Numbered from the stretch's first letter, positions 17,725 through 36,984 are shown. The stretch: DNA of 64,000 nucleotides from Anaerolineales bacterium (GCA_019637755.1 JAHBVC010000001.1:770480-834479); one strand, 5' to 3'. Made by a program: numbers and translations. Notes: a model not told the origin generated them from the letters alone.

Positions 17725-18702
17725 TTAGGGCAGCACGGTTAACGGATCGATAGCTACCCCACCCTGGCGAATCTCAAAATGCACAAATGCGCCTGCGGGG
17801 TGGGCACTGTAGCCCGCCACGCCTAGCGGCTCGCCGGCTTGTAGCGAGGCACCGCACAACGCCTGCACCTCGGCCAGGCCCGCGTACAGGCTGAATTGGC
17901 CGTTACCGTGATCGAGCATCACCGCGTAGCCATAGCCAAAGTTCGACCAGCCGGAAAATGTAACCACGCCAGCATCGGCGGCCAGCACAGCTTCGCCGGG
18001 CTGCGCGGCCAGATCGGCGGCCGGGTGCACGCCGGAGTAACCATCGCCGGCCAGCGTGCCGCCAGCCAGCGGCCAGGCATAGCGGCCCGCGCCCACTGCG
18101 CCGCCATCCACGTTGCGCGGGCAGGCGCCGGCACCAAATTCAAGGAAATCAACCGCCATCGCGGCGCGCGGCAGGTCCGGCAGGGTGCGGCGGCGCAAGG
18201 CCCGCTGGCCGCCGGGCACCAACAGCCACTGTCCGGGTTGAATGACGGGATTGTTGGCATCGAGCTTGTTGCCGGGCCAATTGAGCATGGCTTGCGGGTC
18301 CGCGGCAAAGAAGGCGGCAATGGTATTGACGGTATCGCCGCCGCCCACCTGGTGATAGACGCCATCCACCGGCAGGATAGTGAGCGGCATGCCCTCCAGC
18401 AGGAAATCGGCGATATCGGCCAAGGCATCGTAGTTGGCCCACAGCACCGTCTCCGGCTGCAGGTTGTAGGCGGCGGCAATGCGGCTCAGCGTGTCACCGG
18501 GTTGCACCGTGTAGGTTTCGATCTCACTGCGCGGTTGCGGGGTAGCGCTCGGTTGCGGCGTGGGCGTCTGTGCGGTTGCGCTGGGCTGGGCAATCTCGCT
18601 GGGCACAAGCGTAGCCTGCGGTGCCGGGCTGCTGCAAGCGGCGATAAACAACAGCAGGCCCGTGCTGAGAAGTAGCCGAGCCTGCTGGGTAGAGACGTTC
18701 AT
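17725..18702 (-). CDS. LysM domain-containing M23 family metallopeptidase (lipoprotein)
   Basis: Lipobox LLFIAACSS. The LysM domain is YTVQPGDTLSRIAAAYNL. The M23 core is HPAADLAAQPGEAVLAADAGVVTFSG..GYAVMLDHGNGQFSLYAGL..HFEI. Confidence 0.85.
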   Translation of the reverse strand: MNVSTQQARLLLSTGLLLFIAACSSPAPQATLVPSEIAQPSATAQTPTPQPSATPQPRSEIETYTVQPGDTLSRIAAAYNLQPETVLWANYDALADIADFLLEGMPLTILPVDGVYHQVGGGDTVNTIAAFFAADPQAMLNWPGNKLDANNPVIQPGQWLLVPGGQRALRRRTLPDLPRAAMAVDFLEFGAGACPRNVDGGAVGAGRYAWPLAGGTLAGDGYSGVHPAADLAAQPGEAVLAADAGVVTFSGWSNFGYGYAVMLDHGNGQFSLYAGLAEVQALCGASLQAGEPLGVAGYSAHPAGAFVHFEIRQGGVAIDPLTVLP

Positions 18703-20196: not shown

Positions 20197-20733
20197 TTAC
20201 TGCGCTGCCAGCACCTGGTGCGCCAGCAAGAGCCCCAGCATGGTCTTGGCATCTTCGATCTCGCCGCTGCCAATCGCCGCCAGGCACTCTTCCAAACTCA
20301 GGCGCACCACTTCCAAATCTTCATCCTGGTCTGGCGGTAGCGCATCCGGCTGCAGGTCCTGCGCCAGGTAGATCCACATACGTTCGGTGGAGTAACCGGG
20401 CGCAAGATAAAACTCGGCCAGCAGGGTCAGCGAGCCTGCGCCCATGCCCACTTCCTCGCGCAGCTCACGTTGAGCGGTCACCTCGGTGGCCTCACCCGGC
20501 TCCAGCGTCCCGGCAGGCAGCTCCAAGAGCTGCTTGCCGGTGGAGTGGCGGTACTGGCGCACCAGCAGGATCTTGCCATCCGCATCCACCGGCACCATCG
20601 ACACCGCGCCGATGTGCACGACCGTGTCGTAGATGGCCTCGCGGCCATCACTGGTCTCAAGAATGTCTCGGCGCACCGAGAATTTCTGGCCGCGGTAGGC
20701 AAGCTCACTGCTGATGGTTTTGTATGTGGCCAT
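20197..20733 (-). CDS. NUDIX hydrolase (ADP-ribose / nucleotide-sugar pyrophosphatase-like)
   Basis: The Nudix box is GTLEPGEATEVTAQRELREEVGM. The start ATG overlaps the upstream stop (TAATG at 20731-20735). Confidence 0.85.
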   Translation of the reverse strand: MATYKTISSELAYRGQKFSVRRDILETSDGREAIYDTVVHIGAVSMVPVDADGKILLVRQYRHSTGKQLLELPAGTLEPGEATEVTAQRELREEVGMGAGSLTLLAEFYLAPGYSTERMWIYLAQDLQPDALPPDQDEDLEVVRLSLEECLAAIGSGEIEDAKTMLGLLLAHQVLAAQ

Positions 20734-22154
20734 TAGTCTACGATCTTGTAGTCAGCCACGCGCTGCTCCAACGCACGCCAGATATCTGGCGCGGCTTCAC
20801 CCGCCGCCAGATGCTCGGCAATGAAGCGCCCCATGTCTGCACAGTGGTCGGAATTGTTGTAGTTGTACATACCAATGCGGCCCGTGGTGAGCAGGTTGGG
20901 TACTTGGCGCAGCTTATCGCTCACTAGCTTCATGCGCTCAGCATAGCCGAGGTCATAGCGCGGGTAGAAGTTGTGCTTGCGGATCACCAGGCTGTTGGTG
21001 ACTTCGTCTGCACGGATGAGGCCGGTCTTGACCATGCCATCGATGACCTGCTGAGTGAGCTCAGCATCGCTGGCTTGCCACAAGGCGCTGCCTTCGGCAG
21101 CGGTGAAGTCAGCCGTCACCACGGTGCGGTCCGCCGGGCCGAGCGCCGGGTTCATCTGCTTCTGCTCGAACAGGCGGCTGAAGACCACATTGCGCTGCGG
21201 GAAGAAGACCCACTGGTCTTCCATCACCAGCGGGCGCTTAACCCACACATACACCATGATGAGATGGCGGAACTGCAGGCCTGTCACAGCCTGGTTGAAG
21301 GTTTCGTCTGTGTTGCCAAAGACCATACGGCCGATGAGCGGCAGCGGCAGCGAGGACACCAGGTAGTCGCTGGCAATGGTTTGCGCTGTGCCAGCGATGG
21401 CGGTCTTGACGCTGCGCACGCGGCCATCTTGCATCTCCAGCCCTTGCACGTCTACGCCGGTGAGCACGCGGCCGCCGTGGGCCGCAATGCCTTCGGCCAG
21501 CGCCTGCGGCCAGTCACCGAAGCCGGCTTTAGGGTAGTAGAAAAACTCGGCGTTGGTGTCTGCGGTCTCCTTTTTCAAGCCGAGCAGCTTGAGCACCAGC
21601 TCCATGCCACCCGAGGCGGGCAAGCGCGTGCGCGCCATCTCGGGATGCAAGGTGGCTGGATCGCCCCATACTTTGTCTGCCAGTGGTTCAAAGACCAGCT
21701 CGTAGGTTGGGCGGCCAAAGCGGCGAATGATGTAGTCTTTGTAAGAACCCGGCGCCTTGCGGTTGAAGATGCCCTTAAGCACCTCAATGCCATAGCCAAA
21801 GCCAATCTGCAGGAAGCGCACCGGGCCTAAAGCCTGAGCGAGATTACCTAGCTTGAGCGGATAATCGAGCAGCTTGCCTTCAAGGTACAAGCGGTTCTTT
21901 TTGGGCAGCTGGATCAGTCGGTCACCCATCAAGGATGTGGCTTCGTCCAGCACGCCGGGGATAATGGAGTAGAGCTTATGCGCGCCATAATCGAGCACGA
22001 AGCCATCGTGCTCAAAGCTGCCGCACAGGCCGCCGATCACGGCTTCTTTTTCCAGCACAGTGACATCATATTTACCTGTACGCGCCAGGAAGTAACCAGC
22101 CGCCAGGCCGCCGACACCGGCGCCCAGCACAACGATCTTTTCTTTATTAGACAA
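20733..22154 (-). CDS. FAD-dependent flavoprotein, UDP-galactopyranose-mutase / amine-oxidase-like
   Basis: The Rossmann motif is KIVVLGAGVGGLAAGYFLARTGKYDVTVLEKEAVIGGL. GFVLDYGAHKLYS and GRIGMYNYNNSDHCADMG resemble Glf-family motifs. I place the start at TTG (complement of 22152-22154) behind a GGAG, because the track start at 22277 would overlap the methyltransferase gene. Confidence 0.75.
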   Translation of the reverse strand: MSNKEKIVVLGAGVGGLAAGYFLARTGKYDVTVLEKEAVIGGLCGSFEHDGFVLDYGAHKLYSIIPGVLDEATSLMGDRLIQLPKKNRLYLEGKLLDYPLKLGNLAQALGPVRFLQIGFGYGIEVLKGIFNRKAPGSYKDYIIRRFGRPTYELVFEPLADKVWGDPATLHPEMARTRLPASGGMELVLKLLGLKKETADTNAEFFYYPKAGFGDWPQALAEGIAAHGGRVLTGVDVQGLEMQDGRVRSVKTAIAGTAQTIASDYLVSSLPLPLIGRMVFGNTDETFNQAVTGLQFRHLIMVYVWVKRPLVMEDQWVFFPQRNVVFSRLFEQKQMNPALGPADRTVVTADFTAAEGSALWQASDAELTQQVIDGMVKTGLIRADEVTNSLVIRKHNFYPRYDLGYAERMKLVSDKLRQVPNLLTTGRIGMYNYNNSDHCADMGRFIAEHLAAGEAAPDIWRALEQRVADYKIVD

Positions 22155-22192
22155 GGTCTTACTCCATAACCTAGACAGCCTGATACGCTGAA

Positions 22193-23125
22193 TTATTTCT
22201 TCTCCGCCACAACCAGCATCTGGCCCATCCAATACGGGATCTGCCAGTGCTGCATGCCCAGGCGCTTCACCACCCAACCCGCGGCGCGAGCAACAGGGCG
22301 CACATAGGCTTCCATACGGAAGAGGACATAGCCCAGCTCCAGGCTCTGCCAGTGAGCGCGCTGCACGCGCAGCTCCAGGCCGAGCTCATTGAGCAGGCGG
22401 GTGAGCGTGGGGATGGTGAAGTAGTACAGGTGCACTGAAAGCAGGAATACCCAGCGGCGGCCCATCAGGCGCGCTACGAGGGAATGAATGTCGGGATAGT
22501 TGACCACCAGCAGGCCGCCCGGTTTCAGCACACGGATGCACTCGCGTAGCGTGGCCTTGGGGTCCGGCGTGTGCTCCAGCACATCCCACAGGCTGACGAC
22601 ATCAAAGCTGGCATCGGCCAGTTTCATATCTTCGATCGTGCCGGGCACCACGTCGAGGCTGTAGTGCTGCTTGGCCCAGTCAGACATCCAGCGGTTAGGC
22701 TCGCAGCCCGCTACCTGCCAGCCGGCGCGCTGCGCCACGGCCATGAAGGAGCCACCGGCGGTGCCAACATCCAGCAGCGTACCGCGCTGCGGGCGCATGC
22801 GCTCAATCAGCTTGAGCGAACCGGCAAAGGTGCGCTCACGGCCGGCGGCCTGTGAGACGAACATCTCATCCGTGCCAGCGCTGTAGCCGTCAATCACCAC
22901 ATCGGCGCGCAGGCGCGGGGTGAGGTACATCAGGCCGCACTGCTTGCAGCGCACCAGTTGGTCCAGCAGCACTTCATCCCCAGAGGAGCGGAAGGTATTG
23001 GCAATCTCCTCGGGCTTGGCGTCCTCGTAGCGCGGCGGGTAAACCACTTCGTAATCATCGGCACCGCACAGGTTGCATTTCACATGCTCCAGCAGCGCTT
23101 TGTAGGCTTCTACGTTGTTTTGCAT
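22193..23125 (-). CDS. class I SAM-dependent methyltransferase with N-terminal Cys4 zinc ribbon
   Basis: The zinc ribbon is CNLCGADDYEVVY...CKQCGLMYLTPR. The SAM motif I is LLDVGTAGGSFM, and motif post-I/II is FDVVSLWDVLEHTPDP..LKPGGLLVV. Confidence 0.85.
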   Translation of the reverse strand: MQNNVEAYKALLEHVKCNLCGADDYEVVYPPRYEDAKPEEIANTFRSSGDEVLLDQLVRCKQCGLMYLTPRLRADVVIDGYSAGTDEMFVSQAAGRERTFAGSLKLIERMRPQRGTLLDVGTAGGSFMAVAQRAGWQVAGCEPNRWMSDWAKQHYSLDVVPGTIEDMKLADASFDVVSLWDVLEHTPDPKATLRECIRVLKPGGLLVVNYPDIHSLVARLMGRRWVFLLSVHLYYFTIPTLTRLLNELGLELRVQRAHWQSLELGYVLFRMEAYVRPVARAAGWVVKRLGMQHWQIPYWMGQMLVVAEKK

Positions 23126-24060
23126 TATTTACTTCGCCTTAGGTAGGTCTTGATACCCGCAAAACGGGTGTTGATCGCGTTGAGTGAAAGGCCGATGCCG
23201 AGCGCCATCAGGCCGGTGGGTACCCCCAGCAACACCACACCGCCCAGGATGCTGTCAGGCAGGCTGCCCTGCCCCACAAAACTGAACAGGCGCAGGATAC
23301 CCGCTACCAGCGCCAGCGCCCAGAACAGCAGTGCGATGGCGCCAAAGAGGCGCAGCGGGCGGTGGTCACGCAACAGAATGGCGGCAGTGAGCACGATGCG
23401 GTAGCCATCAGCAAACGGGCGCAGCTTGGAGCTGCTATCCGCGGGGCGGCTGCGGTAACGCGTGGGCACTTCGACGATGTGCAGACCCTCGGCTAGGGCT
23501 TGGATGGTGATCTCGGTCTCGACTTCGAAACCGCTGGTCAGCACCGGCACTCCTTCAATGAAGCGGCGGTTGAAGGCACGGTAGCCGGAGAGCACATCCT
23601 CAAATTTTGTAGCAAAGAGACGGTTGATATAGGCCACGATCATGCGGTTGCCCAGCTGATTGAGGCGTTTCATGTTGGCGTCGCTGGCGCCGTCCATACG
23701 GTGGCCCACCGACATATCCGCCGTGCCGTCCAGCACCGGGGCCAGCACAGTATGAACATCTTCGGCGTAATAGGTGTCATCGCCGTCGGCCATGACAATG
23801 ATGTCTTCATCCAGCTGGTCAAAAATAGCGCGGATGACGTTGCCCTTGCCCAGCTGGCCCACATGGCGCACTTCGGCACGCGCCTTGCGCGCCAGCGCGG
23901 CGCTGGTGTCTGTGGAGGCGTTGTCAAACACGTACACCTTGGCGCGCGGCAGATTTTTGCGGAAATCGCCCACCACCTTGGCAATCGTGGCAGCTTCATT
24001 GTGGCAGGGAATCGCCACAGCGATGCGAGCAGTACGGGCAGAGGGACGTTTGGTGGGCAT
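23125..24060 (-). CDS. GT2 glycosyltransferase with two C-terminal TM helices (GtrB/ArnC/DPM1-like polyprenyl-phosphate sugar synthase)
   Basis: IAVAIPCHNEAATIAKVV..VYVFDNASTDTS..VMADGDDTY (DxD) is the GT-A core. The C-terminal hydrophobic helices are LRLFGAIALLFWALALVAGIL and LGGVVLLGVPTGLMALGIGL. Confidence 0.82.
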   Translation of the reverse strand: MPTKRPSARTARIAVAIPCHNEAATIAKVVGDFRKNLPRAKVYVFDNASTDTSAALARKARAEVRHVGQLGKGNVIRAIFDQLDEDIIVMADGDDTYYAEDVHTVLAPVLDGTADMSVGHRMDGASDANMKRLNQLGNRMIVAYINRLFATKFEDVLSGYRAFNRRFIEGVPVLTSGFEVETEITIQALAEGLHIVEVPTRYRSRPADSSSKLRPFADGYRIVLTAAILLRDHRPLRLFGAIALLFWALALVAGILRLFSFVGQGSLPDSILGGVVLLGVPTGLMALGIGLSLNAINTRFAGIKTYLRRSK

Positions 24061-24063
24061 GGG

Positions 24064-25545
24064 TTAGCGTGCAAACCAGCGCAGAGCCAGCGCCCGGTAG
24101 GGCACCATCTCCATCTTGGTTTGGAACTTGCGGCGCAAGAAGTTGAACGGCTGCGACAAAAGCTTGAAAGGATGATAACGCAGTTTCCACAGCAGGAAAC
24201 TAGCATACAGACGGAAGCGGAAGGAGGCCAGCGCCTGATAGTCTTGGCGCCAGGTGGGGCTGAAATTGAGCTCAGACAAATTGCCATAGCCCTGGAACTG
24301 GTCATATATAGAAGAGCCCGGTACCGGTGTGACGATGAAGAGCGCCACTTCGTCTACGCCCACGCGGGTGAGATCACGCACCAAGTCCCAGGTCATTTGC
24401 AAATCTTCAGGGGTTTCACCCGGGTAGCCGAGCACAAAGCAGGCTTGCGAACGAATGCCCACCTGGTTCATGCGCTTGACCAGGCGCACGGCATGCTTGA
24501 GGTTGAACGGCTTACGCATCAGCTTAAGCAGCCGTGGTGAGCCCGTTTCGGGCGAAATCGAAATATAGCGGCAGCCTGCGGCGGCCATCTGGTCAATGGT
24601 GTCTTCATCCTGCATCGTCTCGACCTTGGTGCCGGCGGCGATCTTCCAGGTGATCTTGAGGCCGCGGCGCAGGATCTCGGCGCAGATGGCGCGGATACGC
24701 TCATCTGAGATGGTGGGGTCAAGGTCCTCGATGTGGAACTCGCTTACACCCAGTGCGCGCTGGAAGTGCTCGATCTCGTCCACCACGTTGAGTGGCGTGC
24801 GCGGGCGCCAGCGCTGGCGGTTGGTGGCCGGCACGACGCAGAAACCACACGGGTATGGGCAACCGCGCGAGGTGAGCAGCGGCAGGTAGCGCTCCGCCGA
24901 GAGCGGGCCGTGGGCAAAGCCTAGCTGCCAGTAGTTTTGCAGCGGGAACAGATCCCACGCTGGGAAAGGCAATGCGCTCAGCTCGGCTTCATCCATGAAG
25001 CCCGCAGGCAAGTTATAGAAATCTGGCCCGCCCACCCCATCGATGGCGCGGATAGCCTGCGCATCGCCCGCTTGCAGCGCTGCCAGCAGGCGCTGGGCGC
25101 GGCGCTCCGGTTCCCCGGTGAGGATGTAATGCGCCCCGGCAGCATAAAACTCCGCGGCTACATGCGTGAGCGCGTAGGCCGTCACCGCCTGCGTGTTCTC
25201 AACCACGATGACCGTGGCCTGCGGGGCGGCCTGGCGGGCGGCACGCACCATCTCCAACGTGGACATGTGATTGGTGAGATTGATGGCGTAGACGAAGACG
25301 GTTTGCGTGTCGGCCGGGATCTGGGCCAGCACTTCAGCCGGGTCGAGCCCGTAGACGTAAAAATTGCCGTCATTGCGTGCTTGGCGCGGCGTGGCGGCAT
25401 ACGCATCCAGCACGCTGACGGCGTGGCCGGCGGCGCGCAAGCTGGCCGCCAAATACGCCAGGCTGATCGGCATGTAGACGATGCCGGTGGTCAGCGGATC
25501 GTTGCGTTGGGCAACCAGATTGGGATTGATAAGCAGCACAGACAT
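24064..25545 (-). CDS. B12-binding-domain radical SAM protein (class B type)
   Basis: The N-terminal Rossmann-like cobalamin domain is VLLINPNL..GIVYMPISLAYLAASLRAAGHAVSVLDAY. The radical SAM cluster is TSRGCPYPCGFCVVP. Confidence 0.82.
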   Translation of the reverse strand: MSVLLINPNLVAQRNDPLTTGIVYMPISLAYLAASLRAAGHAVSVLDAYAATPRQARNDGNFYVYGLDPAEVLAQIPADTQTVFVYAINLTNHMSTLEMVRAARQAAPQATVIVVENTQAVTAYALTHVAAEFYAAGAHYILTGEPERRAQRLLAALQAGDAQAIRAIDGVGGPDFYNLPAGFMDEAELSALPFPAWDLFPLQNYWQLGFAHGPLSAERYLPLLTSRGCPYPCGFCVVPATNRQRWRPRTPLNVVDEIEHFQRALGVSEFHIEDLDPTISDERIRAICAEILRRGLKITWKIAAGTKVETMQDEDTIDQMAAAGCRYISISPETGSPRLLKLMRKPFNLKHAVRLVKRMNQVGIRSQACFVLGYPGETPEDLQMTWDLVRDLTRVGVDEVALFIVTPVPGSSIYDQFQGYGNLSELNFSPTWRQDYQALASFRFRLYASFLLWKLRYHPFKLLSQPFNFLRRKFQTKMEMVPYRALALRWFAR

Positions 25546-25601
25546 AAAAGTGCGCCTCTTTCGCGAAGCGCACTCAAATTATACCCAGCCGCCATAGGCG
25601 C

Positions 25602-28193
25602 TCAGGGCAAGGCAGCACACTGCAGGCTGGCTGCGCCTGGCGCCAGGATGGCGGGGCGCGCCGCCTGCAAGTAGACCAGGGCGACGACATGCAAATACTC
25701 GCGCTGCTGGCAACCCAGCACGACTACATCGGCGGCATTGGGTAGCGCCCGCACAGGCCCGGGGATGGCCGAGCGCATGTGGCCCACCGGGCCAACCAAC
25801 TCAAACTGCACGCGCAGGAAATCCAGCGCCTCATTTTCGTTTTCGCCGCCAGGGTAGACACGCGGGTATAACGCACGCCCCCAGTAGACTTCGGCGCCTG
25901 GCTGGGCGATGAAAGCGGCCACATCCAGGCCGCTGGCCGCCACCTGCGGCGCCGCCTGGATCTGCTGCAGCGCGCTGGCCTCATCCCAGCCCGCATAGCG
26001 TTGCGGCACGGCCAGCTCAGCCAGTGGAATGAACAAGCCCGCCAGCAAGGCCAGGCCGGCAGCGGCCGCCAGGCCGCGCAAGCCCGGCGTCGCCGGCGTG
26101 GCCGCGGGCTGCGGCGCAGCCACCGGCGGTGAGTAGCCGAACAGATAGCGCGCCGCCCACACGCTGAACTGGCCGATACCCAGACAATAGAAGAGCAAAA
26201 TGACCCAATCGGCGGGCAGGATCAACCGCCAGCCGGAGACGCGCGCCAAGGCCGTGCTGGCACTGTACAGAAGATGCATGCCCACCGGCACCAGGCTAAG
26301 CCAGCCGAGCTTGCGCCAGGCCGCCCCCAAGCCCAGCGCCACCAGGGCCACGTTCAACGCCAGCGGGGCCACCCAGTCCGGCGGGATCTGCCCATCCCAC
26401 CCCTGCGCCGCCTGGCCAGTGACCCAATAGGGCGTGCTGGCAATGTACGCATCCAATGAGCAACACTGCGCCCATAGTTGGGCCTGGCGCTGCGGCCAAT
26501 ACGGCTGCAGGTTATAAAACTCCACCAGGCGCGCGGTTAGATCAAAGCGGGCCGGCAATGCCAGAAACGAGGCCACTTCGTTGTGCAAGAAGTGCGCAGT
26601 GATGAAGCGCGCCACCTCGCCGGGATGCGCCAACACAAATTGGCGCACATTGGCAAAACCCAACGCCACATAGTCGCTGGCGGGCGTGGTGGCGATATCA
26701 AAGCCAGGATCGTTGCTTTCGGGGGCCAGGCTGTATTGGCGCGCCATGTAGAGCGCCTGAAACGGCTGCGAGTAGCCGAACTCGCCGGTGCGCACAGCAT
26801 TGCGCACCATCCAGGGAAGCGCGGTGAGGGCAAAGCCCAGCAGTACCAGGCCTGCCAGCGGCAGCCGCACCCGCCACGGCCCTTTGGCGCGCAGCAGCAC
26901 CAACAGCACCAGGAACGGCAAAAAGATCAGCGTTTGTGAACGCAGCAACAGCAAGAGGCCCAGTGCGGCCCCCACCCACAGGGCACGGCGCGGTTGCTCT
27001 GCGCGGTGCTGCAACCAATCCAGCACCAGCAGGGTGAAGGCGGCCAGCGCCACAGCGGTGGGCAGATCCGTCATCAATAGTTTGGAATGCGAGACCAGAA
27101 TGCGGTTGGAGAGCGCCAGCGTATTCAGCTCGCGCAGGATGATCACCAGGGCCAGCAGCAGGCCGGAGAAACGCTGGTGCAAACGGGCCGCCAGGAAGTA
27201 CAGCACCACCGGAAACAGCGCCAGCAGCCAGATCTGGGCATTGACCACCTGGGCATACTCCTGCCCCACCAGGCTGTGCAGGACGACCAGCAGGAAAGCA
27301 TACAGTGGCTTCTCGATCACATCGGAGAAGCCATTACCAGTGAGAAAGCGCTGGGCGGCAATATCCAGGGTGGCAGCATCTGAATTTGGGTAATACTCCC
27401 AGTTGGGCGCCGCCGGGGCCAGCGAGAAATGGGTGGTGCGTGGTGGCTGGGCACTCCACAATACTGCGGCCAGCAGCCAGATGCCTAGCGCCGCCAGCAG
27501 GTCTACGCGGGTGGGCCGCCAGTTCAAACGGCGCGCCGCCCAGCCCATCAAGCTGGCGATCAGCCACGCCGCGCACCAGGCCAGCAACACCTGCGTGTTC
27601 AAGACCGGCGCACCGGGCGTATCCCAGCCGGTGCGATCGGGCTGCAGGCCCAGGCCGCTGAGCACTACTGCGCCCACCGCCAGCAGCAAGACCAGCCCCG
27701 CCAGCGCGGCCGGGCGCAGCACGCCGCGCGCCTGCGCCCCGGTGCTGGCGGGGCGCAGGCGCGGCCAGCACAGCAGGGCCGCGGCGCAAGCCCAACATGC
27801 CCAGACACTCAACGGCAGCAGGCGCAGCAAGCGCGCTTGCGCAAAAGCATCGCTAATGCGCAAGCTGAATAACACCAAATACAATGCGAGAACAAAGCCC
27901 AGCGCGGCCAGCCCGATCCAGGCGTTATGCCACGCCGGCCGGGCCAGCATCCAGGCCGCCGCGCGCGCCAGCCAGGCTTCGCGGCGCGCCAGCCAGGCAG
28001 CGCCGGCCGCCAGGCCCAGCAGCGCCAGCAGCAAGGCCCAGCGCGCTGGAGAAAGCCCCAGCACAGCCGTGCTGGCCTGGCTGGGTTGCGAGAACACCAA
28101 GCCGGCGGCCGCAACCGCGCCCAGGGCACTGAGCAGCAGCCAGCGGGCCAACCAGCGAGTGGGAGATGTATTCATATCCTCTGTTTTTAACAT
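25602..28193 (-). CDS. Large polytopic GT-C-fold glycosyltransferase-like membrane protein (PMT_2/ArnT-like core with long N-terminal membrane extension and C-terminal soluble domain)
   Basis: About 860 aa with many TM helices. YYPNSDAATLDIAAQRFLTGNGFSDVIEKPLYAFLLVVLHSLVG resembles the first-loop Asp motif region of ArnT/PMT-type GT-C enzymes. The start could be 28202 (TTG), 28193 (ATG) or 28175 (ATG). Confidence 0.6.
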   Translation of the reverse strand: MLKTEDMNTSPTRWLARWLLLSALGAVAAAGLVFSQPSQASTAVLGLSPARWALLLALLGLAAGAAWLARREAWLARAAAWMLARPAWHNAWIGLAALGFVLALYLVLFSLRISDAFAQARLLRLLPLSVWACWACAAALLCWPRLRPASTGAQARGVLRPAALAGLVLLLAVGAVVLSGLGLQPDRTGWDTPGAPVLNTQVLLAWCAAWLIASLMGWAARRLNWRPTRVDLLAALGIWLLAAVLWSAQPPRTTHFSLAPAAPNWEYYPNSDAATLDIAAQRFLTGNGFSDVIEKPLYAFLLVVLHSLVGQEYAQVVNAQIWLLALFPVVLYFLAARLHQRFSGLLLALVIILRELNTLALSNRILVSHSKLLMTDLPTAVALAAFTLLVLDWLQHRAEQPRRALWVGAALGLLLLLRSQTLIFLPFLVLLVLLRAKGPWRVRLPLAGLVLLGFALTALPWMVRNAVRTGEFGYSQPFQALYMARQYSLAPESNDPGFDIATTPASDYVALGFANVRQFVLAHPGEVARFITAHFLHNEVASFLALPARFDLTARLVEFYNLQPYWPQRQAQLWAQCCSLDAYIASTPYWVTGQAAQGWDGQIPPDWVAPLALNVALVALGLGAAWRKLGWLSLVPVGMHLLYSASTALARVSGWRLILPADWVILLFYCLGIGQFSVWAARYLFGYSPPVAAPQPAATPATPGLRGLAAAAGLALLAGLFIPLAELAVPQRYAGWDEASALQQIQAAPQVAASGLDVAAFIAQPGAEVYWGRALYPRVYPGGENENEALDFLRVQFELVGPVGHMRSAIPGPVRALPNAADVVVLGCQQREYLHVVALVYLQAARPAILAPGAASLQCAALP

Positions 28194-28200
28194 AGTTGGC

Positions 28201-28230
28201 AAAACAAAAGGGCTGGGATTTGCCCAGCCC
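28201..28230 (-). terminator. Rho-independent terminator after the LysM gene, abutting the GT-C gene start
   Basis: The - strand reads gggctgggcaaatcccagccc followed by ttttgtttt (complement of 28201-28230). Confidence 0.65.
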
Positions 28231-28256
28231 TCTGGAAGGCCGCAAGGGTATGCAGG

Positions 28257-28940
28257 CTAGGGAATGTGTAGCTGCGTGCCACCAGGAATGTTCTGGTCAA
28301 GGCTGAGGCCATTGGCTTCGGCAATGTGCTCCGGCCATACATCGCCGAAAGCGCAGGCAATACTATAGAAGCTATCCGCGCCGCTGGCCACGTAGGTGGT
28401 GGGGTGCGCACGCAGAGCACGCTCGCCACCATAGCCACCCACCCCACTGGGAATGCTGATGGTGGTGCCAACGCTGAGGCTGTTGGCGTTGTTGGCGTTC
28501 AGCCCATTGGCGGAGAGCAAAGCATCCGGATTGATGTCAAAACGGCGCGCCAGGCAATACGGCCATTCCCCTTCGTGCAGCGTGTAGCTACTCGGCACGG
28601 CCAGCTGGGTGATCGGGGCCGGCGTGGTGGTGGCCGTGGCTTCGGGGGTAGCGCTGGGCGCCACGGTGGCGGTGTTGCCGAACAGCGGGGTGGCGCTTAC
28701 GTCCAGCGTGGGCTGCACACCGGTTTTATCCTGGCCGGCCAGGGCGGTTTGGGTGGCCATCGTGTTGAAGATCGACACCAGTGGGTCCTCGGTAGCGACC
28801 GTCACCGGATCGGTGGAAGCAGAGCGCGTGCAGGCCGCCAGCAACAGCGCCAACAGCACGAAGATCAGCAGGGACAAGCGGTTTTTTCTCATGGGTTTGC
28901 GAACATCCATTCCAGTCGATTCGGATACTAGCATAGCCAA
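28257..28940 (-). CDS. Secreted lipoprotein with two LysM domains
   Basis: Lipobox LLLAACTRS. The two LysM-like modules are YTLHEGEWPYCLARRFDINPDALLSANGL and YVASGADSFYSIACAFGDVWPEHIAEANGLSLDQNIPGGTQLHIP. Confidence 0.8.
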   Translation of the reverse strand: MAMLVSESTGMDVRKPMRKNRLSLLIFVLLALLLAACTRSASTDPVTVATEDPLVSIFNTMATQTALAGQDKTGVQPTLDVSATPLFGNTATVAPSATPEATATTTPAPITQLAVPSSYTLHEGEWPYCLARRFDINPDALLSANGLNANNANSLSVGTTISIPSGVGGYGGERALRAHPTTYVASGADSFYSIACAFGDVWPEHIAEANGLSLDQNIPGGTQLHIP

Positions 28941-29038: not shown

Positions 29039-30088
29039 CTAGGGGGTCTGCAGGGTTTGGTTCAACTGCGCAAAATCGGGGCTGAGCTGCTCAATGGCAA
29101 AGGGGATGCTGAGCACCGTGGAGAAATTGAGTGCATCGTAGATCGGGCTGGTGTTGGAAAGGTAGACCACGCGGCCATCCTTCACAATGTCCAGATTGGC
29201 GTAGAGCGGGTTATTGCGCATTTCCTCAGGCAGCGAATCGATCCAGATCAGGAAATCGATGTCAATGATGTCGAAGCGCTCCAGCGAGATCGAGGCGCCA
29301 AACTCCTCACCGGCCAACTCATCGATCACGGGGGGATAGCTGAAGCCCAGCGAGGTCATAAAGCGGCCGCGCGAGTCTTGTGAGCCATAGACGTAGTAGC
29401 TGGTGGGGTAGCCCCACGGCGTGGCGACCACCGCCTCGGCACCCTGAATGTTGGGGAACTGGGCACGCGCTTCGGCGAAAGCGCTTTCAACGCCGGCAAT
29501 CAGGTTTTCCGCCTCAGCGGCCTTGCCGACGATCTGACCCATCGTGCGGGTCACTTCCTGCCAGGGCACGCCCCAATCGACATACTCGGCGGGTTGCGCC
29601 ACGGTGGGGGCGATTTGGCTCAGGGTGGTGTACTCCTCCTGGGTGATCCCGGCATACAGGCCCACGATCACGTCCGGCTCCAGCGCGGCGATCTCCTCAA
29701 AGTTGAGTTGACCGCTGCTCAAGACTACTGGGGTTGCGCCGTCCAGCGCGGCCAGCTCGTCCTGCGCCCATTCAAAAATGGCGCCGGGGCGTTCGCCATA
29801 CCACTCCCGCGTGGCCACCGGCACTACGCCGAGGGCCAGCAGGGCATCCTGCTCATTAAGGCCAACGAGCACAATGCGCTCGGGCGCGGCTTCAATGGTG
29901 GTGCTGCCATACTTGTGCTCGATGGAGACGGGGAATGCGGCCTCAGCGGTGGGCGCCTCGGTGGCGGCTTCCTCAACCGCGGCCTCAGTGACCGGCGCGG
30001 GGGTTGCAGCTGGCGCCGGTGCGCCGCAGGCAGCGGCCAACAACGCCAGGATGAAGAGTAATGAAACTACGAAACTGCGTTTGAACAT
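29039..30088 (-). CDS. ABC substrate-binding lipoprotein, iron-siderophore/cobalamin (FecB/FhuD/BtuF, cluster A-2) type; orphan
   Basis: Lipobox LALLAAACGA. ERIVLVGLNEQDALLALGVVPVATREWYG is the typical 'PERIV..L.lg..P' motif. There is no cognate permease or ATPase nearby. Confidence 0.78.
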   Translation of the reverse strand: MFKRSFVVSLLFILALLAAACGAPAPAATPAPVTEAAVEEAATEAPTAEAAFPVSIEHKYGSTTIEAAPERIVLVGLNEQDALLALGVVPVATREWYGERPGAIFEWAQDELAALDGATPVVLSSGQLNFEEIAALEPDVIVGLYAGITQEEYTTLSQIAPTVAQPAEYVDWGVPWQEVTRTMGQIVGKAAEAENLIAGVESAFAEARAQFPNIQGAEAVVATPWGYPTSYYVYGSQDSRGRFMTSLGFSYPPVIDELAGEEFGASISLERFDIIDIDFLIWIDSLPEEMRNNPLYANLDIVKDGRVVYLSNTSPIYDALNFSTVLSIPFAIEQLSPDFAQLNQTLQTP

Positions 30089-33379: not shown

Positions 33380-34552
33380 CTAAACAGTTTTTAAGACGTG
33401 CGTCACGGCGGTGGATGCCGGGCCGCCCAGGCTCTGTACCAGGGCAGTCTTGGCGCCAGCGATCTGCGCCCCACCCGCCTGGCCGCGCAGTTGCAGCGCA
33501 GCCTCGGCCGCCTGGTAGGCGCCCGTGGCGCCGCCGGGGAAGCCGCGCGCTTTCAGGCCGCCCAGGGTGGTAATGGGCATCTCGCCAGTCAGCGAGATGG
33601 CGCCGTTCTGGGCCAGCTTCCAGCCTTCGCCGCGGGCAGCCAGGCCAGCAGCTTCCAGCGTGAGGGCACTATAGATGGAAAAGGCATCGAAGAGCTCGAA
33701 GAAATCAGCATCCTTAGGCAGAATGCCCGCCTGGGCGCAAGCACGTTCGATGGAGAGGCGTGCGGCGTTGAAGATGAGCGGATCGGGGCGGTCATGCAGC
33801 GCTAGCGTGTCAGTGACCGCGCTGGAGCCGGTGATCTCGACCAGAGGGTGCGAAAACTTGGGCGGCAACAGCTCACGGCGGGTGAGGATGAGCGCCGCAG
33901 CGCCATCCGCATTGGGAGCAACGTCAAACAGGTTGAGCGGCGCGCTGACCAGGCCCGCCTTGGCATACGTCTCGGGCTTGATGGCTTTGCGGAACATGGC
34001 ATTGGGGTTATGCGCGCCGTTGGCATGCGCGGTAACCGCGAACCCAGCCAGCGCGTGCTCAGGCACTTTATGCTCGTAGACGTAGCGTTGCGCCAGCATG
34101 GCGGCTTGCGCGGTCAGGGTCATGCCCTGCTCCGCTTCGTAGTCCGTATCCGAGCTCATCGCCAGGGCGGCTTCGACCTCGGCGGGCACTTGCTCGCTGA
34201 GCTTCTCGACGCCCAGCACCATGGCGAAATCCACCATGCCGCTGGAGACGGCCATTGTGCCGGCGCGCAGCGCCATGGCGGCTGAGGCGCCGGCGGCTTC
34301 CACCGTGGCGGCTTCGATACCGGTCAGGCCGGCAAAATCAGCCAGCAAGGTGGCCAGCTGGGTCTGCTTGGAAAGCTGGCCAGCCAGCATGTTGCCCACG
34401 TACAGCGCCGTAGGGCGCAGGCCGTCAGCATCCTGCATGGCGGCCTCCATTGCGTGAAAGGCCAACTCACGCAGCGAAGTGTCCCAGTGTTCGTTGACGG
34501 GCGTCTGCCCGATACCTGCGATGATTACGTTCGTCATAAATTCCTTAGTCAA
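33380..34552 (-). CDS. Archaeal-type thiolase (acetyl-CoA C-acetyltransferase, thiolase-domain protein)
   Basis: 390 aa. VIIAGIGQTPVNEHWDTSLRELAFHAMEAAMQDAG is the N-terminal region, and the C-terminal thiolase region is GGLKARGFPGGATGAYQ. Confidence 0.88.
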   Translation of the reverse strand: MTKEFMTNVIIAGIGQTPVNEHWDTSLRELAFHAMEAAMQDADGLRPTALYVGNMLAGQLSKQTQLATLLADFAGLTGIEAATVEAAGASAAMALRAGTMAVSSGMVDFAMVLGVEKLSEQVPAEVEAALAMSSDTDYEAEQGMTLTAQAAMLAQRYVYEHKVPEHALAGFAVTAHANGAHNPNAMFRKAIKPETYAKAGLVSAPLNLFDVAPNADGAAALILTRRELLPPKFSHPLVEITGSSAVTDTLALHDRPDPLIFNAARLSIERACAQAGILPKDADFFELFDAFSIYSALTLEAAGLAARGEGWKLAQNGAISLTGEMPITTLGGLKARGFPGGATGAYQAAEAALQLRGQAGGAQIAGAKTALVQSLGGPASTAVTHVLKTV

Positions 34553-34609
34553 AAGCAGTCGGTTAGTCCATTAGTCGACTAGTTGACCAAGCAACTAGTC
34601 AACTATCGA

Positions 34610-35704
34610 TTACTTCATCGCCAACTTGCCGCGCATGCGTACGTAAGCGGCATAGTCGATCTCGGTGCGGCGTTGGATGTACTGCTCAGTGGTGGGCGCT
34701 AACTGCGGCTTGCCCGCAATCTTGTCGGTCACGCGCAGCACCATCGCGTCTGAGCCGGCGCCAGAGCCGAAGGAAACCAGCATGATGCGGTCACCCGGCT
34801 TGGCAATATCCAGAATGGCGGTAAGGCCGATGATGGCCGCGCCGGAATAGGTGTTGCCGATGCGCGGCACGAGCAGGCCGGTTTGAATTTGCTCGGGCGT
34901 GAAGCCCAGCATCTGCCCGGCGCGCTGGGGGAACTTGGCGTTGGGCTGGTGGAACACGGCGAAGGTGTAATCCTCCGGCTTGGTGCCGGTGGCCTCGAAC
35001 ATGGCTTGGCCCGCGGTGGTGATGTGCTTGAAATAGGCCGGCTCACCAGTGAAACGCTGCCCATGCTCTGGGTACTTGGCGTACTGGCGACGCCAAAAAT
35101 CGGGCGTGTCGGTGACGAAAGAGTAAGTGCACTCGATCTCGGCCACGGATTCTTCGGCCGGGCCAATGATGAAGGCGGCCCCACCCGCCCCGGCGGTGTA
35201 TTCGAGGGCGTCGCCTGGGCGGCCCTGGGCGGTGTCCATGCCAATGGCCATGGCGTAGCGCGCCATGCGCGAGCCTACGAAGCCCATCGCCGCTACCATC
35301 GCCTCGGTGCCGGCTTTGCAGGCAAATTCCCAATCGGCCGCCTGGATGCTGGTGGAGGCGCCGATGGCCTCGGCCACTAGCGTGGAGCTGGGCTTGACGG
35401 CATAGGGGTGCGACTCAGAGCCCACCCAGATAGCACGCAGGTCTTTGACCGGCACCTGGGCACGCGCAACCGCGTTGCGCGCCGCTTCGATAGACATCGT
35501 GATGACGTCTTCATCCAACCCCGGCACGGATTTTTCAACGATAGGCAACCCCGCAGTGCCGTCCGTCCAGACGCGCGCTACTTCTTTGGCGGGCAGGCGG
35601 TAGCGCGGCACATAAGCACCATAACCTACGATGCCAACGGCATGTTCCGGCTTGAGCAGCCGGGCGGTTTCGTGTTCGTGGATATGCTCTGTCATTGCGA
35701 CCAT
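34610..35704 (-). CDS. HMG-CoA synthase, short archaeal type
   Basis: 364 aa. [24 protein letters not shown] and [15 protein letters not shown] (catalytic Cys context) are present. The start overlaps the HMGR stop by 13 nt. Confidence 0.88.
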
Positions 35705-36984
35705 TCCTTCAATAGTTCTTCGGCGCGGTCTACGCGCACGGTCTTTTCTGCTACTAACTGAGCGGCCAGCTTCTCGACCATTTCGCCATGCGCCCCAGCG
35801 GCAATCGCCACCTGGCGGGCGTGCAGACCCATGTGACCGCGCTGGATGCCCTCGGTGGCGAGGGCGCGCAAGGCGGCCAGGTTCTGCGCCAAGCCAACGG
35901 CAGTGATGATCTCGGCAAGCTGCGCGGCGCTGGTCACGCCCATCAGCTTGAGGGCGGCCTGGGCGGTGGGGTGCACTTTGGTGGCCCCGCCGACGATACC
36001 GACTGCCATCGGCAGCTCCAGGCTGCCGACCAGATCACCCTCGGGCGATACGCCCCAGGTGCTAAGCGAGGTATAGCGGCCATCACGCGCCGCATAAGCA
36101 TGCGCGCCCGCTTCCACGGCGCGCCAGTCATTGCCGGTGGCGATGACCACGGCGTCAATACCGTTCATGATGCCTTTGTTGTGCGTAGCGGCGCGGTACG
36201 GGTCGGCCGCGGCGAAGGCCCAGGCTTCCACGATGCCATCGCGTACCTGCTCGGTGCTGAAATCGCCAAAGGCGAGCTCACTGCGTTTGATGGTGCAAGC
36301 GGCGCGCGCCAGGCGGCGGTCGGCCAGGTTGCTGAGAATGCGCAGGTGCACGCGGCCGCCGCTGAGCGCTTCAATGCGCGGCGCGAGGCGCTCGCAGGCG
36401 GTGTTGATGGCATTGGCGCCCATCGCATCGCGCACATCGTAGATGAGGTGCAGCACCAGGAAGGGGCCAATGGGCGAATCGTCAATGCGGCGGATGACCA
36501 GCTCGCGCGGGCCGCCGCCCAGCTTGAGGAGGATCGGGTCGATCTGCGCCGCCTCGGCCAGCAGGTCGGGTGTGGAGGCCTGCAGGGCGGCGGCCGCCGC
36601 ATCCAAATCGGCCACATCCAGCAGCTGCATCTGGCCGATCATGAGCGGCGCGTCTGTGCTGGCGGTGAAACCGCCAGCAGCGCGGGCCAGCTTGGCCATG
36701 AAGGATGCGCCGGCTACGACGGAAGGCTCTTCAACGGCCATCGGTACCAGCACCTCACGGCCGTTGACCATGAAGTTGAGCCCCAGCCCCAGCGGCAGGC
36801 TATGCACGCCGATGGCATTCTCCACCATGTGGTCAGCCGCCTCGGCGTGAATGCCGCCCTGTGCCAGGGCGCCGAGCTGCTCCTCGGAGAGGATGCCAAG
36901 CGCCCGCAGGCGCTGGTGGCGCTCTTCTATAGACAGGTCGTAAAAACCGGGAATGCGAGAGGTGTTTTCAATTGGCGAATTCAT
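35692..36984 (-). CDS. HMG-CoA reductase, class II (bacterial/'degradative'-type fold)
   Basis: 430 aa. [46 protein letters not shown] closely parallels the class II MvaA motif region. [10 protein letters not shown] is also present. Confidence 0.88.

Follow-up and report, generated by a model that had tools for sequence, protein, structure and literature searches.

What do six open reading frames (ORFs) lying head-to-tail on the minus strand in the genome of an uncultured Anaerolineales bacterium (GCA_019637755.1) make together, if they act together at all? The array occupies positions 20197–28202 of the 64,000-nucleotide stretch JAHBVC010000001.1:770480-834479, which was analyzed as a whole and is referred to as the window. 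In a preliminary description of this locus, it was taken as a tightly coupled six-gene operon and candidate for an undescribed modification of envelope glycans, comprising a GT-C-type membrane glycosyltransferase, a cobalamin-dependent radical S-adenosylmethionine (SAM) enzyme (rSAM), a glycosyltransferase of family 2 (GT2), a methyltransferase, a flavoenzyme and a NUDIX hydrolase. Comparison with related loci reveals that four of these genes, in the order rSAM, GT2, methyltransferase and flavoenzyme, are conserved across many phyla, and that this core is regularly accompanied by predicted GT-C-type proteins of varying families. At a probability of about 0.5, the four enzymes would constitute an insertable, mobile donor-tailoring cassette which, together with a lineage-specific GT-C enzyme, provides a methylated furanose-form sugar on polyprenyl phosphate and enables its transfer outside the cytoplasm. 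In the direction of transcription, the locus is composed as follows.

28207–28233, minus strand: terminator-like hairpin of the upstream LysM gene (11-bp stem with 7 GC pairs, T-run)
25602–28202, minus strand: gene of the putative GT-C protein; 866 aa from a TTG, the ATG at 28193 being the likelier start and giving 863 aa (P0121)
25546–25601, minus strand: GT-C/rSAM intergenic region with -10-like element GGTATAAT and hairpin
24064–25545, minus strand: rSAM gene, predicted radical SAM enzyme with B12-binding domain (class B architecture)
23125–24060, minus strand: GT2 gene, predicted polyprenyl/dolichyl-phosphate sugar synthase type with two C-terminal transmembrane (TM) helices
22193–23125, minus strand: methyltransferase gene, predicted class I SAM methyltransferase with N-terminal four-cysteine zinc ribbon
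20733–22154, minus strand: flavoenzyme gene, TTG start after GGAG; predicted flavin adenine dinucleotide (FAD) enzyme of the eukaryote-type UDP-galactopyranose mutase (UGM) kind
20197–20733, minus strand: NUDIX gene, predicted NUDIX hydrolase, NudE/ADP-sugar pyrophosphatase-like

Conserved gene order and genomic setting of the cassette

For assessing conservation, one genome per GTDB species was scanned with the rSAM alignment, returning 93 loci of which 80 were kept; the six window proteins were compared with these loci by tblastn and all locus ORFs were clustered. The nearest proteins of the window genes stem from metagenome-assembled genomes of Anaerolineales. The most conserved gene of the system is rSAM, with identities from 98% down to 44% over the 80 loci, which are labeled as Chloroflexota, Nitrospirae, Lentisphaerae, Omnitrophota, Acidobacteriota, Deltaproteobacteria, Bdellovibrionota, Elusimicrobia, Pelagibacteraceae, Dependentiae and Woese- and Nanoarchaeia, among others; some labels (Planctomycetales, Xenococcaceae) may be binning errors. 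The fixed order rSAM, GT2, methyltransferase and FAD enzyme was found in 39 of the 80 loci (38 fully co-directional), with labels spanning Chloroflexota, Nitrospirae, Lentisphaerae, Omnitrophota, Acidobacteriota, Deltaproteobacteria and Planctomycetes, and the four genes are arranged likewise in the Woesearchaeota locus L070, the GT2 of which is divergent. Another 31 loci encode rSAM and methyltransferase with other partners, nine represent truncated contigs and a single one shows no partner gene, while the methyltransferase is paired with rSAM in 61 of 74 loci. With 39 loci from many phyla agreeing in gene order, the four-gene core is a conserved unit far beyond chance. Cassettes with unchanged gene order are also present on contigs labeled Xenococcaceae (Cyanobacteria) or Planctomycetales/Planctomycetia (L011, L017, L019, L032, L040, L041, L043, and L064); their rSAM proteins are 54–70% identical to the Anaerolineales rSAM, and either horizontal transfer or mis-binned contigs would account for them.

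The claim of six genes hard-wired as a unit has to be narrowed accordingly to four genes with an exchangeable GT-C partner. Adjacency of the NUDIX gene to the cassette is confined to the window and its nearest relatives L001–L003, the other 77 of the 80 loci lacking it; hence, the encoded protein was rejected as a conserved component. It matches the NUDIX family at 66.5 bits and the NudE model at 113 bits (below the cut-off of 169), its gene is translationally coupled to that of the flavoenzyme in the window, and it is best read as a lineage-specific passenger, a recent recruit or a housekeeping add-on for nucleotide sugars. The family of the window GT-C is found in Chloroflexota loci only, and there its gene lies directly upstream of rSAM in every locus with enough flanking sequence except L016, down to an rSAM identity of 59%. 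Co-occurrence in other genomes, on which the preliminary description had let the idea of a unit depend beforehand, is thus evident for rSAM, GT2, methyltransferase and flavoenzyme, is lacking for NUDIX and ends at the border of Chloroflexota for the GT-C family.

Outside Chloroflexota, a polytopic protein with 7–12 predicted helices almost always adjoins the cassette. This neighbor matches PMT and PMT_2 in L011, PMT_2 in L050 and L047, PMT_2 weakly in L034, and YfhO in L061, while for five of the ten cassette-adjacent polytopic proteins of a second batch, to which the latter four belong, no family match was obtained. As judged from these matches, GT-C-type proteins of several subfamilies recur beside the cassette in unrelated phyla, so that the pairing of GT2 with such a membrane protein, originally noted in the window, extends well beyond it. 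Such varied neighbors are to be expected of a cassette that supplies a lipid-linked donor and whose transferase is exchanged depending on the acceptor.

In comparison with L001, the four core enzymes are 94–99% identical at the protein level with a DNA identity of about 83%, pointing to strong purifying selection. The GT-C protein, encoded at 25602–28193 in the window and at 7266–9950 in L001, shows 68% identity, the membrane protein thus evolving much faster than the adjacent enzymes; its gene also causes the strong AT skew (0.32) at 26–28 kb of the window.

In most Anaerolineales, the cassette is found inside a larger polysaccharide cluster with Wzm/Wzt, in line with the envelope glycan role proposed earlier. 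This cluster begins with a methyltransferase, GT2 and family 1 glycosyltransferase (GT1) genes, a gene for a 690-aa membrane protein without known function and the GT-C gene, followed by the cassette, and continues with genes for a second GT-C paralogue, a PMT_2-like protein of 517 aa, a MarR-like regulator, epimerase/dehydratases, an ABC-2 permease and an ATPase with Wzt_C domain, which by its predicted gene content is the layout of an ABC-transporter-dependent polysaccharide pathway. In the window and L001–L003, only GT-C, cassette and NUDIX remain, located between the gene of a LysM protein and rho. A further Anaerolineales locus (L082, 16 kb) has GT1, GT2, a 699-aa protein without known function, GT-C, PMT_2-like, MarR-like, epimerase and Wzm/Wzt genes without the rSAM-GT2-methyltransferase-FAD cassette. 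With a cluster lacking it, the cassette behaves as an insertable module, and L082 represents a natural minus-cassette comparator.

A sister architecture (type B) shares with the cassette the pair of rSAM and methyltransferase, which is followed by genes for a HAD hydrolase, a MobA/IspD-like nucleotidyltransferase, a CofD::GT2 fusion and a short soluble GT2, again with polytopic or PMT-type proteins nearby. It was found at about 10–16 kb in each of the loci L027, L044, L045, L060, L062, L065, L066, L068, L071, L073, L075 and L078, its hosts being Bdellovibrionota, Elusimicrobia, SAR11, Nitrospina and SAR324. The nucleotidyltransferase suggests that the rSAM and methyltransferase pair acts on nucleotide-activated substrates. 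What both architectures might share is, speculatively, a common chemical handle, as the exocyclic diol of a hexofuranose resembles a nucleoside diphosphate (NDP)-polyol. Notably, a CofD-like domain is fused to a glycosyltransferase within a glycan cluster here.

At the nucleotide level, the co-directional arrangement with minimal junctions reported earlier is correct throughout. The GT-C stop codon and the rSAM ATG are separated by 56 nt, rSAM and GT2 adjoin as TAAcccATG, GT2 and methyltransferase overlap in TAATG, about 38 nt with an internal GGAG lie between the methyltransferase stop codon and the TTG start of the flavoenzyme gene at 22154, and the latter overlaps with the NUDIX gene in another TAATG. 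In the 56-nt gap, however, a -10-like element (GGTATAAT, 25591–25584, minus strand) is followed by a terminator-like hairpin with an 11-bp stem (25575–25548, minus strand) ending just before the rSAM ATG, so that the tightly coupled operon may consist of 1 + 5 transcription units. In 12 Anaerolineales loci (window, L001, L003–L010, L031, and L038), the GTATAAT box and the stem bases GCGC and GAGGCG are invariant or nearly so, resulting in the hairpin consensus GCGC(C/T)TC-loop-GAGGCGC before the rSAM start, whereas the intergenic sequence around box and hairpin is not conserved. Because both elements are kept while their surroundings are not, the core cassette is probably transcribed from a promoter of its own, with a structured leader including a GAGG Shine-Dalgarno sequence, which is likely sequestered by the hairpin; the stem is kept mostly in sequence, and covariation is not claimed.

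Predicted activities of the encoded proteins

For the six proteins, Pfam and NCBIfam yield only generic matches or matches below the cut-off, and no equivalog cut-off is reached. Likewise, a full-text literature search over combinations of radical SAM/B12, polyprenyl, GT-C, UGM, CofD and methylated sugar did not retrieve any paper on the gene set, its yield being limited to the broader idea of three-component glycosylation. Together with the polysaccharide-cluster setting, this makes it fair to speak of an undescribed envelope glycan modification system. Of the six domain assignments made at first sight, five agree with Pfam and NCBIfam, while the GT-C protein has no match of its own and is assigned via its orthologues.

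The GT2 protein matches Glycos_transf_2 at 58.8 bits and, below the respective equivalog cut-offs, the models of AglJ (213 bits, cut-off 325), dolichyl-phosphate (Dol-P) hexose transferase (81 bits) and PpgS (58 bits). Its sole match in the PDB is the dolichyl-phosphate mannose synthase (DPMS) structure 5mlz (E = 1.2e-6). The motif D92-x-D94 is invariant in 37 family members, and two hydrophobic TM helices are evident from the translation of the C-terminus. In agreement with the initial proposal, these features support the assignment to the polyprenyl/dolichyl-phosphate sugar synthase type, with transfer of a sugar to polyprenyl phosphate as predicted reaction.

For the flavoenzyme, the best family is PRK07208 (“hypothetical proteins,” 265 bits, cut-off 389); in addition, Amino_oxidase is matched, as is GLF at 26.4 bits (cut-off 26.3). 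With a score of only 28 bits against the NCBIfam model UDP-GALP_mutase (cut-off 304), it does not count as a bacterial Glf orthologue. Instead, it aligns over its full length with the UGMs from T. cruzi (4dsg, residues 6–448) and A. fumigatus (AfUGM, 3ute) at E = 5e-10. Besides the FAD Rossmann-fold residues G11-x-G13-x-x-G16 and E35, which are invariant in an alignment of 42 members, the residues H59, R177, W315, R327, Y397 and Y432 are at least 93% conserved in the family and correspond to H63, R182, W315, R327, Y419 and Y453 of AfUGM, which we take to be the histidine loop and the residues holding the UDP diphosphate (two arginines and two tyrosines). Conservation of these hallmark residues argues for a mutase and against an amine oxidase or desaturase, and from the initial label “UDP-galactopyranose-mutase/amine-oxidase-like” only the former part is retained. 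The enzyme is thus probably an NDP-sugar pyranose/furanose mutase of the eukaryote-type UGM kind, to which it aligns over the full length and with which it shares the histidine loop, the pair of arginines binding the diphosphate and the tyrosine pair, although the pairwise match is weak (E = 5e-10, 42 bits) and the window protein belongs to the unnamed PRK07208 family.

The methyltransferase (Methyltransf_23, 93 bits) has a zinc ribbon with invariant C17, C20, C60 and C63. When using its AlphaFold2 model (predicted local distance difference test score, pLDDT, 83) as query, Foldseek returned the dTDP-sugar C3-methyltransferases MtmC, KijD1 and TcaB9 as top matches over the whole length (about 317 aligned columns, query TM-score about 0.6, E about 1e-12), compared with a query TM-score of about 0.45 for generic methyltransferases. 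Shared with these best structural matches are the zinc-ribbon N-terminus and the Rossmann methyltransferase core. In contrast, the window protein is about 100 residues shorter (310 aa versus about 405–420 aa in these C3-methyltransferases), is only 14–18% identical to the three and lacks the C-terminal Methyltransf_14 domain; neither Pfam Methyltransf_13 nor Methyltransf_14 is matched. Judging from the model, it is an architectural relative and not a member of the NDP-hexose C3-methyltransferases, and this resemblance suggests that some tailoring probably happens on a nucleotide sugar.

In rSAM, the Radical_SAM domain (77.5 bits) carries the motif C229-x3-C233-x2-C236 (CxxxCxxC) with invariant cysteines. 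Full-length alignments were obtained with the models of the B12-type radical SAM proteins BchE, ApyD and Sden_1168, all below the cut-off; the best curated model is Sden_1168 (144 bits, cut-off 575), and the nearest solved structures, AprD4 and TsrM, are distant (E = 1e-14 to 1e-12). The CxxxCxxC core, the carbohydrate context and, if the sub-threshold match holds, an N-terminal B12-type domain are common to the class B methylases GenK, Fom3 and MoeK5, which act on sugars or nucleotide-linked alcohols, as well as to the non-methylating HpnJ, Cds and AprD4, from which the window enzyme differs in reaching no model cut-off and in the distance even to the closest structures (E = 1e-14). Among enzymes with B12 domain, AprD4, HpnJ and BchE are members that do not methylate. 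The predicted class B architecture of rSAM therefore leaves its reaction type unassigned, and C-methylation is what we infer for it. Some cassettes bear two or three B12-type rSAM paralogues in tandem (L034/L035 at 5.6–11.1 kb, L051 at 2.7–7.4 kb, L067 at 10.0–12.9 kb, and L077), which hints at several radical modifications of one sugar.

Assignment of the 863-aa membrane protein as GT-C relies on its family, as PMT_2 (PF13231) is matched by 13 of 21 aligned orthologues (best E = 2.5e-11) which are 30–68% identical to the window protein. The AlphaFold2 model (pLDDT 83; predicted template modeling score, pTM, 0.86) consists of about 20 helices and a beta-domain at residues 770–844. The structural comparison with solved GT-Cs that had been suggested at the outset gave a confident model with only weak matches, namely, to STT3A, PglB and ALG3, and a profile search of PDB sequences found nothing. 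In the model, a TM helix (residues 230–250) is followed by a loop (251–274) and a short helix (275–287) bearing the invariant D275 and D280; S274-D275-A276 as well as P299, L300 and Y301 are invariant and K298 is nearly so, the latter residues preceding the next TM helix. In GT-C enzymes such as ArnT and PMT, the first loop outside the membrane, which follows TM1, is expected to bear an acidic residue in company of juxtamembrane helices; with its topology deduced from the model, the 863-aa protein shows this layout. It is hence likely a divergent PMT_2-type GT-C. Two parts could not be matched to anything, an extra N-terminal block of about eight helices (residues 1–250) with a conserved GLGLQPD..GWD.PG loop and the beta-sandwich-like C-terminal domain (residues 770–844). 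As a flippase gene is not present, the N-terminal block is worth considering as a candidate for this role.

Proposed pathway and competing explanations

Evident from the comparisons are the gene order, the family assignments, the conserved active-site residues, the linkage of the four genes across phyla, their pairing with GT-C-type proteins and the polysaccharide-cluster setting. In the pathway that we infer, along with its substrate, furanose form, methylation sites, step order, acceptor and flippase, the flavoenzyme would first convert an NDP-hexopyranose to the NDP-hexofuranose. Methyl groups might then be added by the zinc-ribbon methyltransferase, probably at a heteroatom or activated carbon, and by rSAM at an unactivated carbon, either on the nucleotide sugar or on the lipid-linked sugar. 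On the cytoplasmic side of the membrane, GT2 would link the sugar to polyprenyl phosphate, a flippase would then flip this donor, and the GT-C enzyme would finally attach the modified sugar, as a single unit, to an exported polysaccharide of the envelope, which in related Anaerolineales might be the product of the Wzm/Wzt ABC-transporter-dependent cluster.

Three-component extracytoplasmic glycosylation with auxiliary donor-modifying enzymes is an established concept (PMC11127046). The window set would share with GtrA/GtrB/GtrC from Shigella/Salmonella, CsbB/GtcA/YfhO and GacI/GacJ/GacL a GT2-type polyprenyl-phosphate synthase with C-terminal TM helices and a GT-C, a pair which in these systems, too, is often a module inside or beside a polysaccharide cluster. 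In contrast, a GtrA-type flippase gene is missing at the window locus, none of the mentioned systems has the rSAM, zinc-ribbon methyltransferase and UGM-type mutase, and the window GT-C with its large N-terminal extension belongs to a distinct, Chloroflexota-restricted family. A cytoplasmic lipid-linked furanose donor, its auxiliary modification and an outside GT-C would also be common to the mycobacterial decaprenyl-phospho-arabinofuranose route with its Emb/Aft GT-Cs and to the pentofuranose systems consisting of a polyprenyl phosphoribose synthase, a MATE flippase, a GT136 enzyme and an auxiliary epimerase (Kelly et al., 2024, PMC11127046). Their donors, however, are pentoses derived from phosphoribosyl pyrophosphate (PRPP) via a UbiA-like phosphoribosyltransferase and epimerization, whereas loading by a GT2, a hexose furanose from a UGM-type mutase and methylation are proposed for the window set. 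With the ArnA–ArnT pathway, it would share tailoring of a nucleotide sugar, loading onto undecaprenyl phosphate by a GT2 (ArnC), further modification, flipping and transfer by a PMT_2-type enzyme (ArnT), while tailoring chemistry, acceptor (lipid A) and taxonomic range differ and no Arn orthologue at cut-off is found in the window set. What distinguishes the window set from these systems is above all rSAM and the zinc-ribbon methyltransferase as obligatory companions, then the UGM-type mutase, a GT2 in place of a PRPP-dependent synthase and the lack of a flippase gene.

Several observations speak against the proposed pathway. We know of no precedent for a lipid-linked hexofuranose donor loaded by a GT2. 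The B12-binding domain of rSAM (PF02310) scores 23.2 bits, below the cut-off of 32.1, and class B radical SAM enzymes also catalyze ring contraction, cyclization and dehydration, so that methylation is not assured. A dehydratase forming a 4-keto sugar is not encoded in the cassette, though the C3-methyltransferase relatives need such a substrate. The window GT-C has no Pfam or NCBIfam match of its own (E ≤ 0.01), its Foldseek matches in the PDB are weak (STT3A, probability 1.00; PglB, 0.93; ALG3, 0.72; E-values 0.011–0.35 and TM-scores 0.19–0.39), and alignment with PMT-positive neighbors by hhalign is weak as well (probability 30%, E = 5e-4); moreover, the promoter-like element suggests that it is transcriptionally separated from the cassette. 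A dedicated flippase gene (GtrA-, MATE- or SMR-like) is missing from the locus, as 20197–28202 leaves no room for one, and a crude hydropathy count over the window, which did not include Pfam searches with the small ORFs, brought up no small GtrA-like ORF with four TM helices. Finally, the rest of the Anaerolineales polysaccharide cluster was not found in the window, leaving the acceptor without nearby candidate.

As the main competing explanation, NDP-sugar synthesis might be confined to the cytoplasm. Flavoenzyme, methyltransferase and rSAM would then provide a modified NDP-sugar, which GT2, as a conventional Leloir transferase anchored in the membrane, would add to a growing lipid-linked repeat unit inside the cell, and the GT-C neighbors would polymerize, ligate or decorate otherwise. 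In accordance with this, the diphosphate-binding residues of the mutase are conserved, the methyltransferase has the fold of dTDP-sugar methyltransferases, and type B loci replace the FAD enzyme by HAD hydrolase and nucleotidyltransferase and encode short soluble GT2s. Neither does the locus at 20197–28202 encode a flippase nor was any recognized in the window apart from an unlinked MurJ, and the cassette seems to have its own promoter. The best matches of GT2, however, are all polyprenyl/dolichyl-phosphate monosaccharide synthases, whose C-terminal TM hairpin it shares, and without some functional connection, one could hardly account for GT-C-type proteins of at least three subfamilies recurring beside the cassette in phyla that are not related. 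On balance, we consider this pathway possible but rather unlikely.

Alternatively, the PMT_2-type GT-C might transfer the lipid-linked modified sugar to Ser/Thr (or Asn) residues of secreted, S-layer or cell-wall-binding proteins, following the models of O-mannosylation by PMT and archaeal AglJ-dependent glycosylation. This would be in line with PMT_2 matches in the GT-C family, with oligosaccharyltransferases as best, albeit weak, structural matches, with AglJ as best model for GT2 and with a window unit flanked by LysM proteins and not by a polysaccharide cluster. In most Anaerolineales, though, the unit is embedded in the Wzm/Wzt cluster with many GT1 and GT2 genes. In addition, PMT_2 also spans ArnT-like lipid and glycan transferases, and an acceptor gene is not conserved beside the unit. 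Protein glycosylation appears unlikely.

Remodeling of a lipid head group has to be regarded as still less probable. Here, GT2 would glycosylate a membrane lipid and rSAM would rearrange the sugar, for example, by contraction to a carbocycle as is known of HpnJ for hopanoid cyclitol ethers and of Cds for calditol, with flavoenzyme and methyltransferase finishing the head group. HpnI/HpnJ and Cds are indeed a precedent for pairs of glycosyltransferase and B12-domain radical SAM enzyme acting on lipid-linked sugars, genes of the mevalonate pathway are present in the window, and rSAM and the flavoenzyme match HpnJ (99 bits) and HpnE (58 bits), respectively. Both matches are below the threshold and partial, that of rSAM to HpnJ being confined to the radical SAM core and weaker than matches to unrelated models. 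Furthermore, the flavoenzyme carries the residues of UGM and not those of a desaturase; on account of both points, a hopanoid-like reading was down-weighted. Squalene or hopene genes are not found nearby, and the setting is that of glycan clusters with ABC exporter and GT-C enzymes.

That the six genes are accidental neighbors without joint function, for which the lineage restriction of NUDIX and the window GT-C family and the promoter-like element splitting the array might be invoked, is effectively refuted for the four-gene core by its order in 39 loci of distant phyla with overlapping or near-abutting junctions, and is hardly credible for GT-C in view of its adjacency to rSAM within Chloroflexota down to 59% rSAM identity.

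The lipid-linked donor pathway may also be framed more broadly as a pan-phylum, horizontally mobile module, in which a polyprenyl-phosphate-linked hexofuranose is C-methylated by the cobalamin-dependent rSAM at an exocyclic or ring carbon, and type B loci in SAR11, Bdellovibrionota and Elusimicrobia apply the same enzyme pair to a nucleotide-activated polyol; in this specific form, the proposal is rather unlikely to be right. If true, it would represent the first lipid-linked hexofuranose donor and the first donor tailored by a radical SAM enzyme for extracytoplasmic glycosylation by a GT-C.

Surface glycans of Chloroflexota and of many uncultured lineages are chemically unknown, and the cassette is widespread and strongly conserved in bacterial phyla and DPANN archaea, is found in glycan contexts and has no characterized member. 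Should the proposed donor pathway prove correct, extracytoplasmic glycosylation would gain donor tailoring by cobalamin-dependent radical SAM enzymes, methylated hexofuranoses would constitute a new class of lipid-linked donors, and a surface structure would depend on the supply of cobalamin, for instance in communities of activated sludge and sediments. The four-gene order may serve as a simple bioinformatic marker for such glycans, and glycoengineering of C-methyl or furanosyl sugars might draw on the enzymes.

Neighborhood of the unit in the window

The strong hairpin of the LysM gene (28233–28207) directly precedes the GT-C start and marks the upstream edge of the unit. Beyond the LysM gene, about 840 bp upstream of the GT-C start, a binding protein of the Peripla_BP_2 family (BtuF/siderophore-type) is encoded at 29039–30088 on the minus strand. 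A cobalamin riboswitch or other RNA family linking this BtuF-like gene to the cassette was not found, as there were no Rfam matches in the window, nor were tRNAs detected.

Upper mevalonate pathway genes for thiolase, HMG-CoA synthase-like protein and HMG-CoA reductase are located in a row at 33380–36984 on the minus strand. As stated in the preliminary description, they are present in the window without being linked to the array, and they are unlinked to the cassette in other genomes as well. The only recognizable flippase for lipid-linked sugars in the window is a MurJ-family lipid II flippase encoded at 1489–3069 on the plus strand, 17 kb away and unlinked.

Two LysM-domain proteins encoded on the minus strand at 17725–18702 and 28257–28940 bracket the unit, one being an M23 peptidase and the other a secreted protein rich in Thr, Pro and Ala; low-complexity secreted proteins are typical targets of glycosylation.

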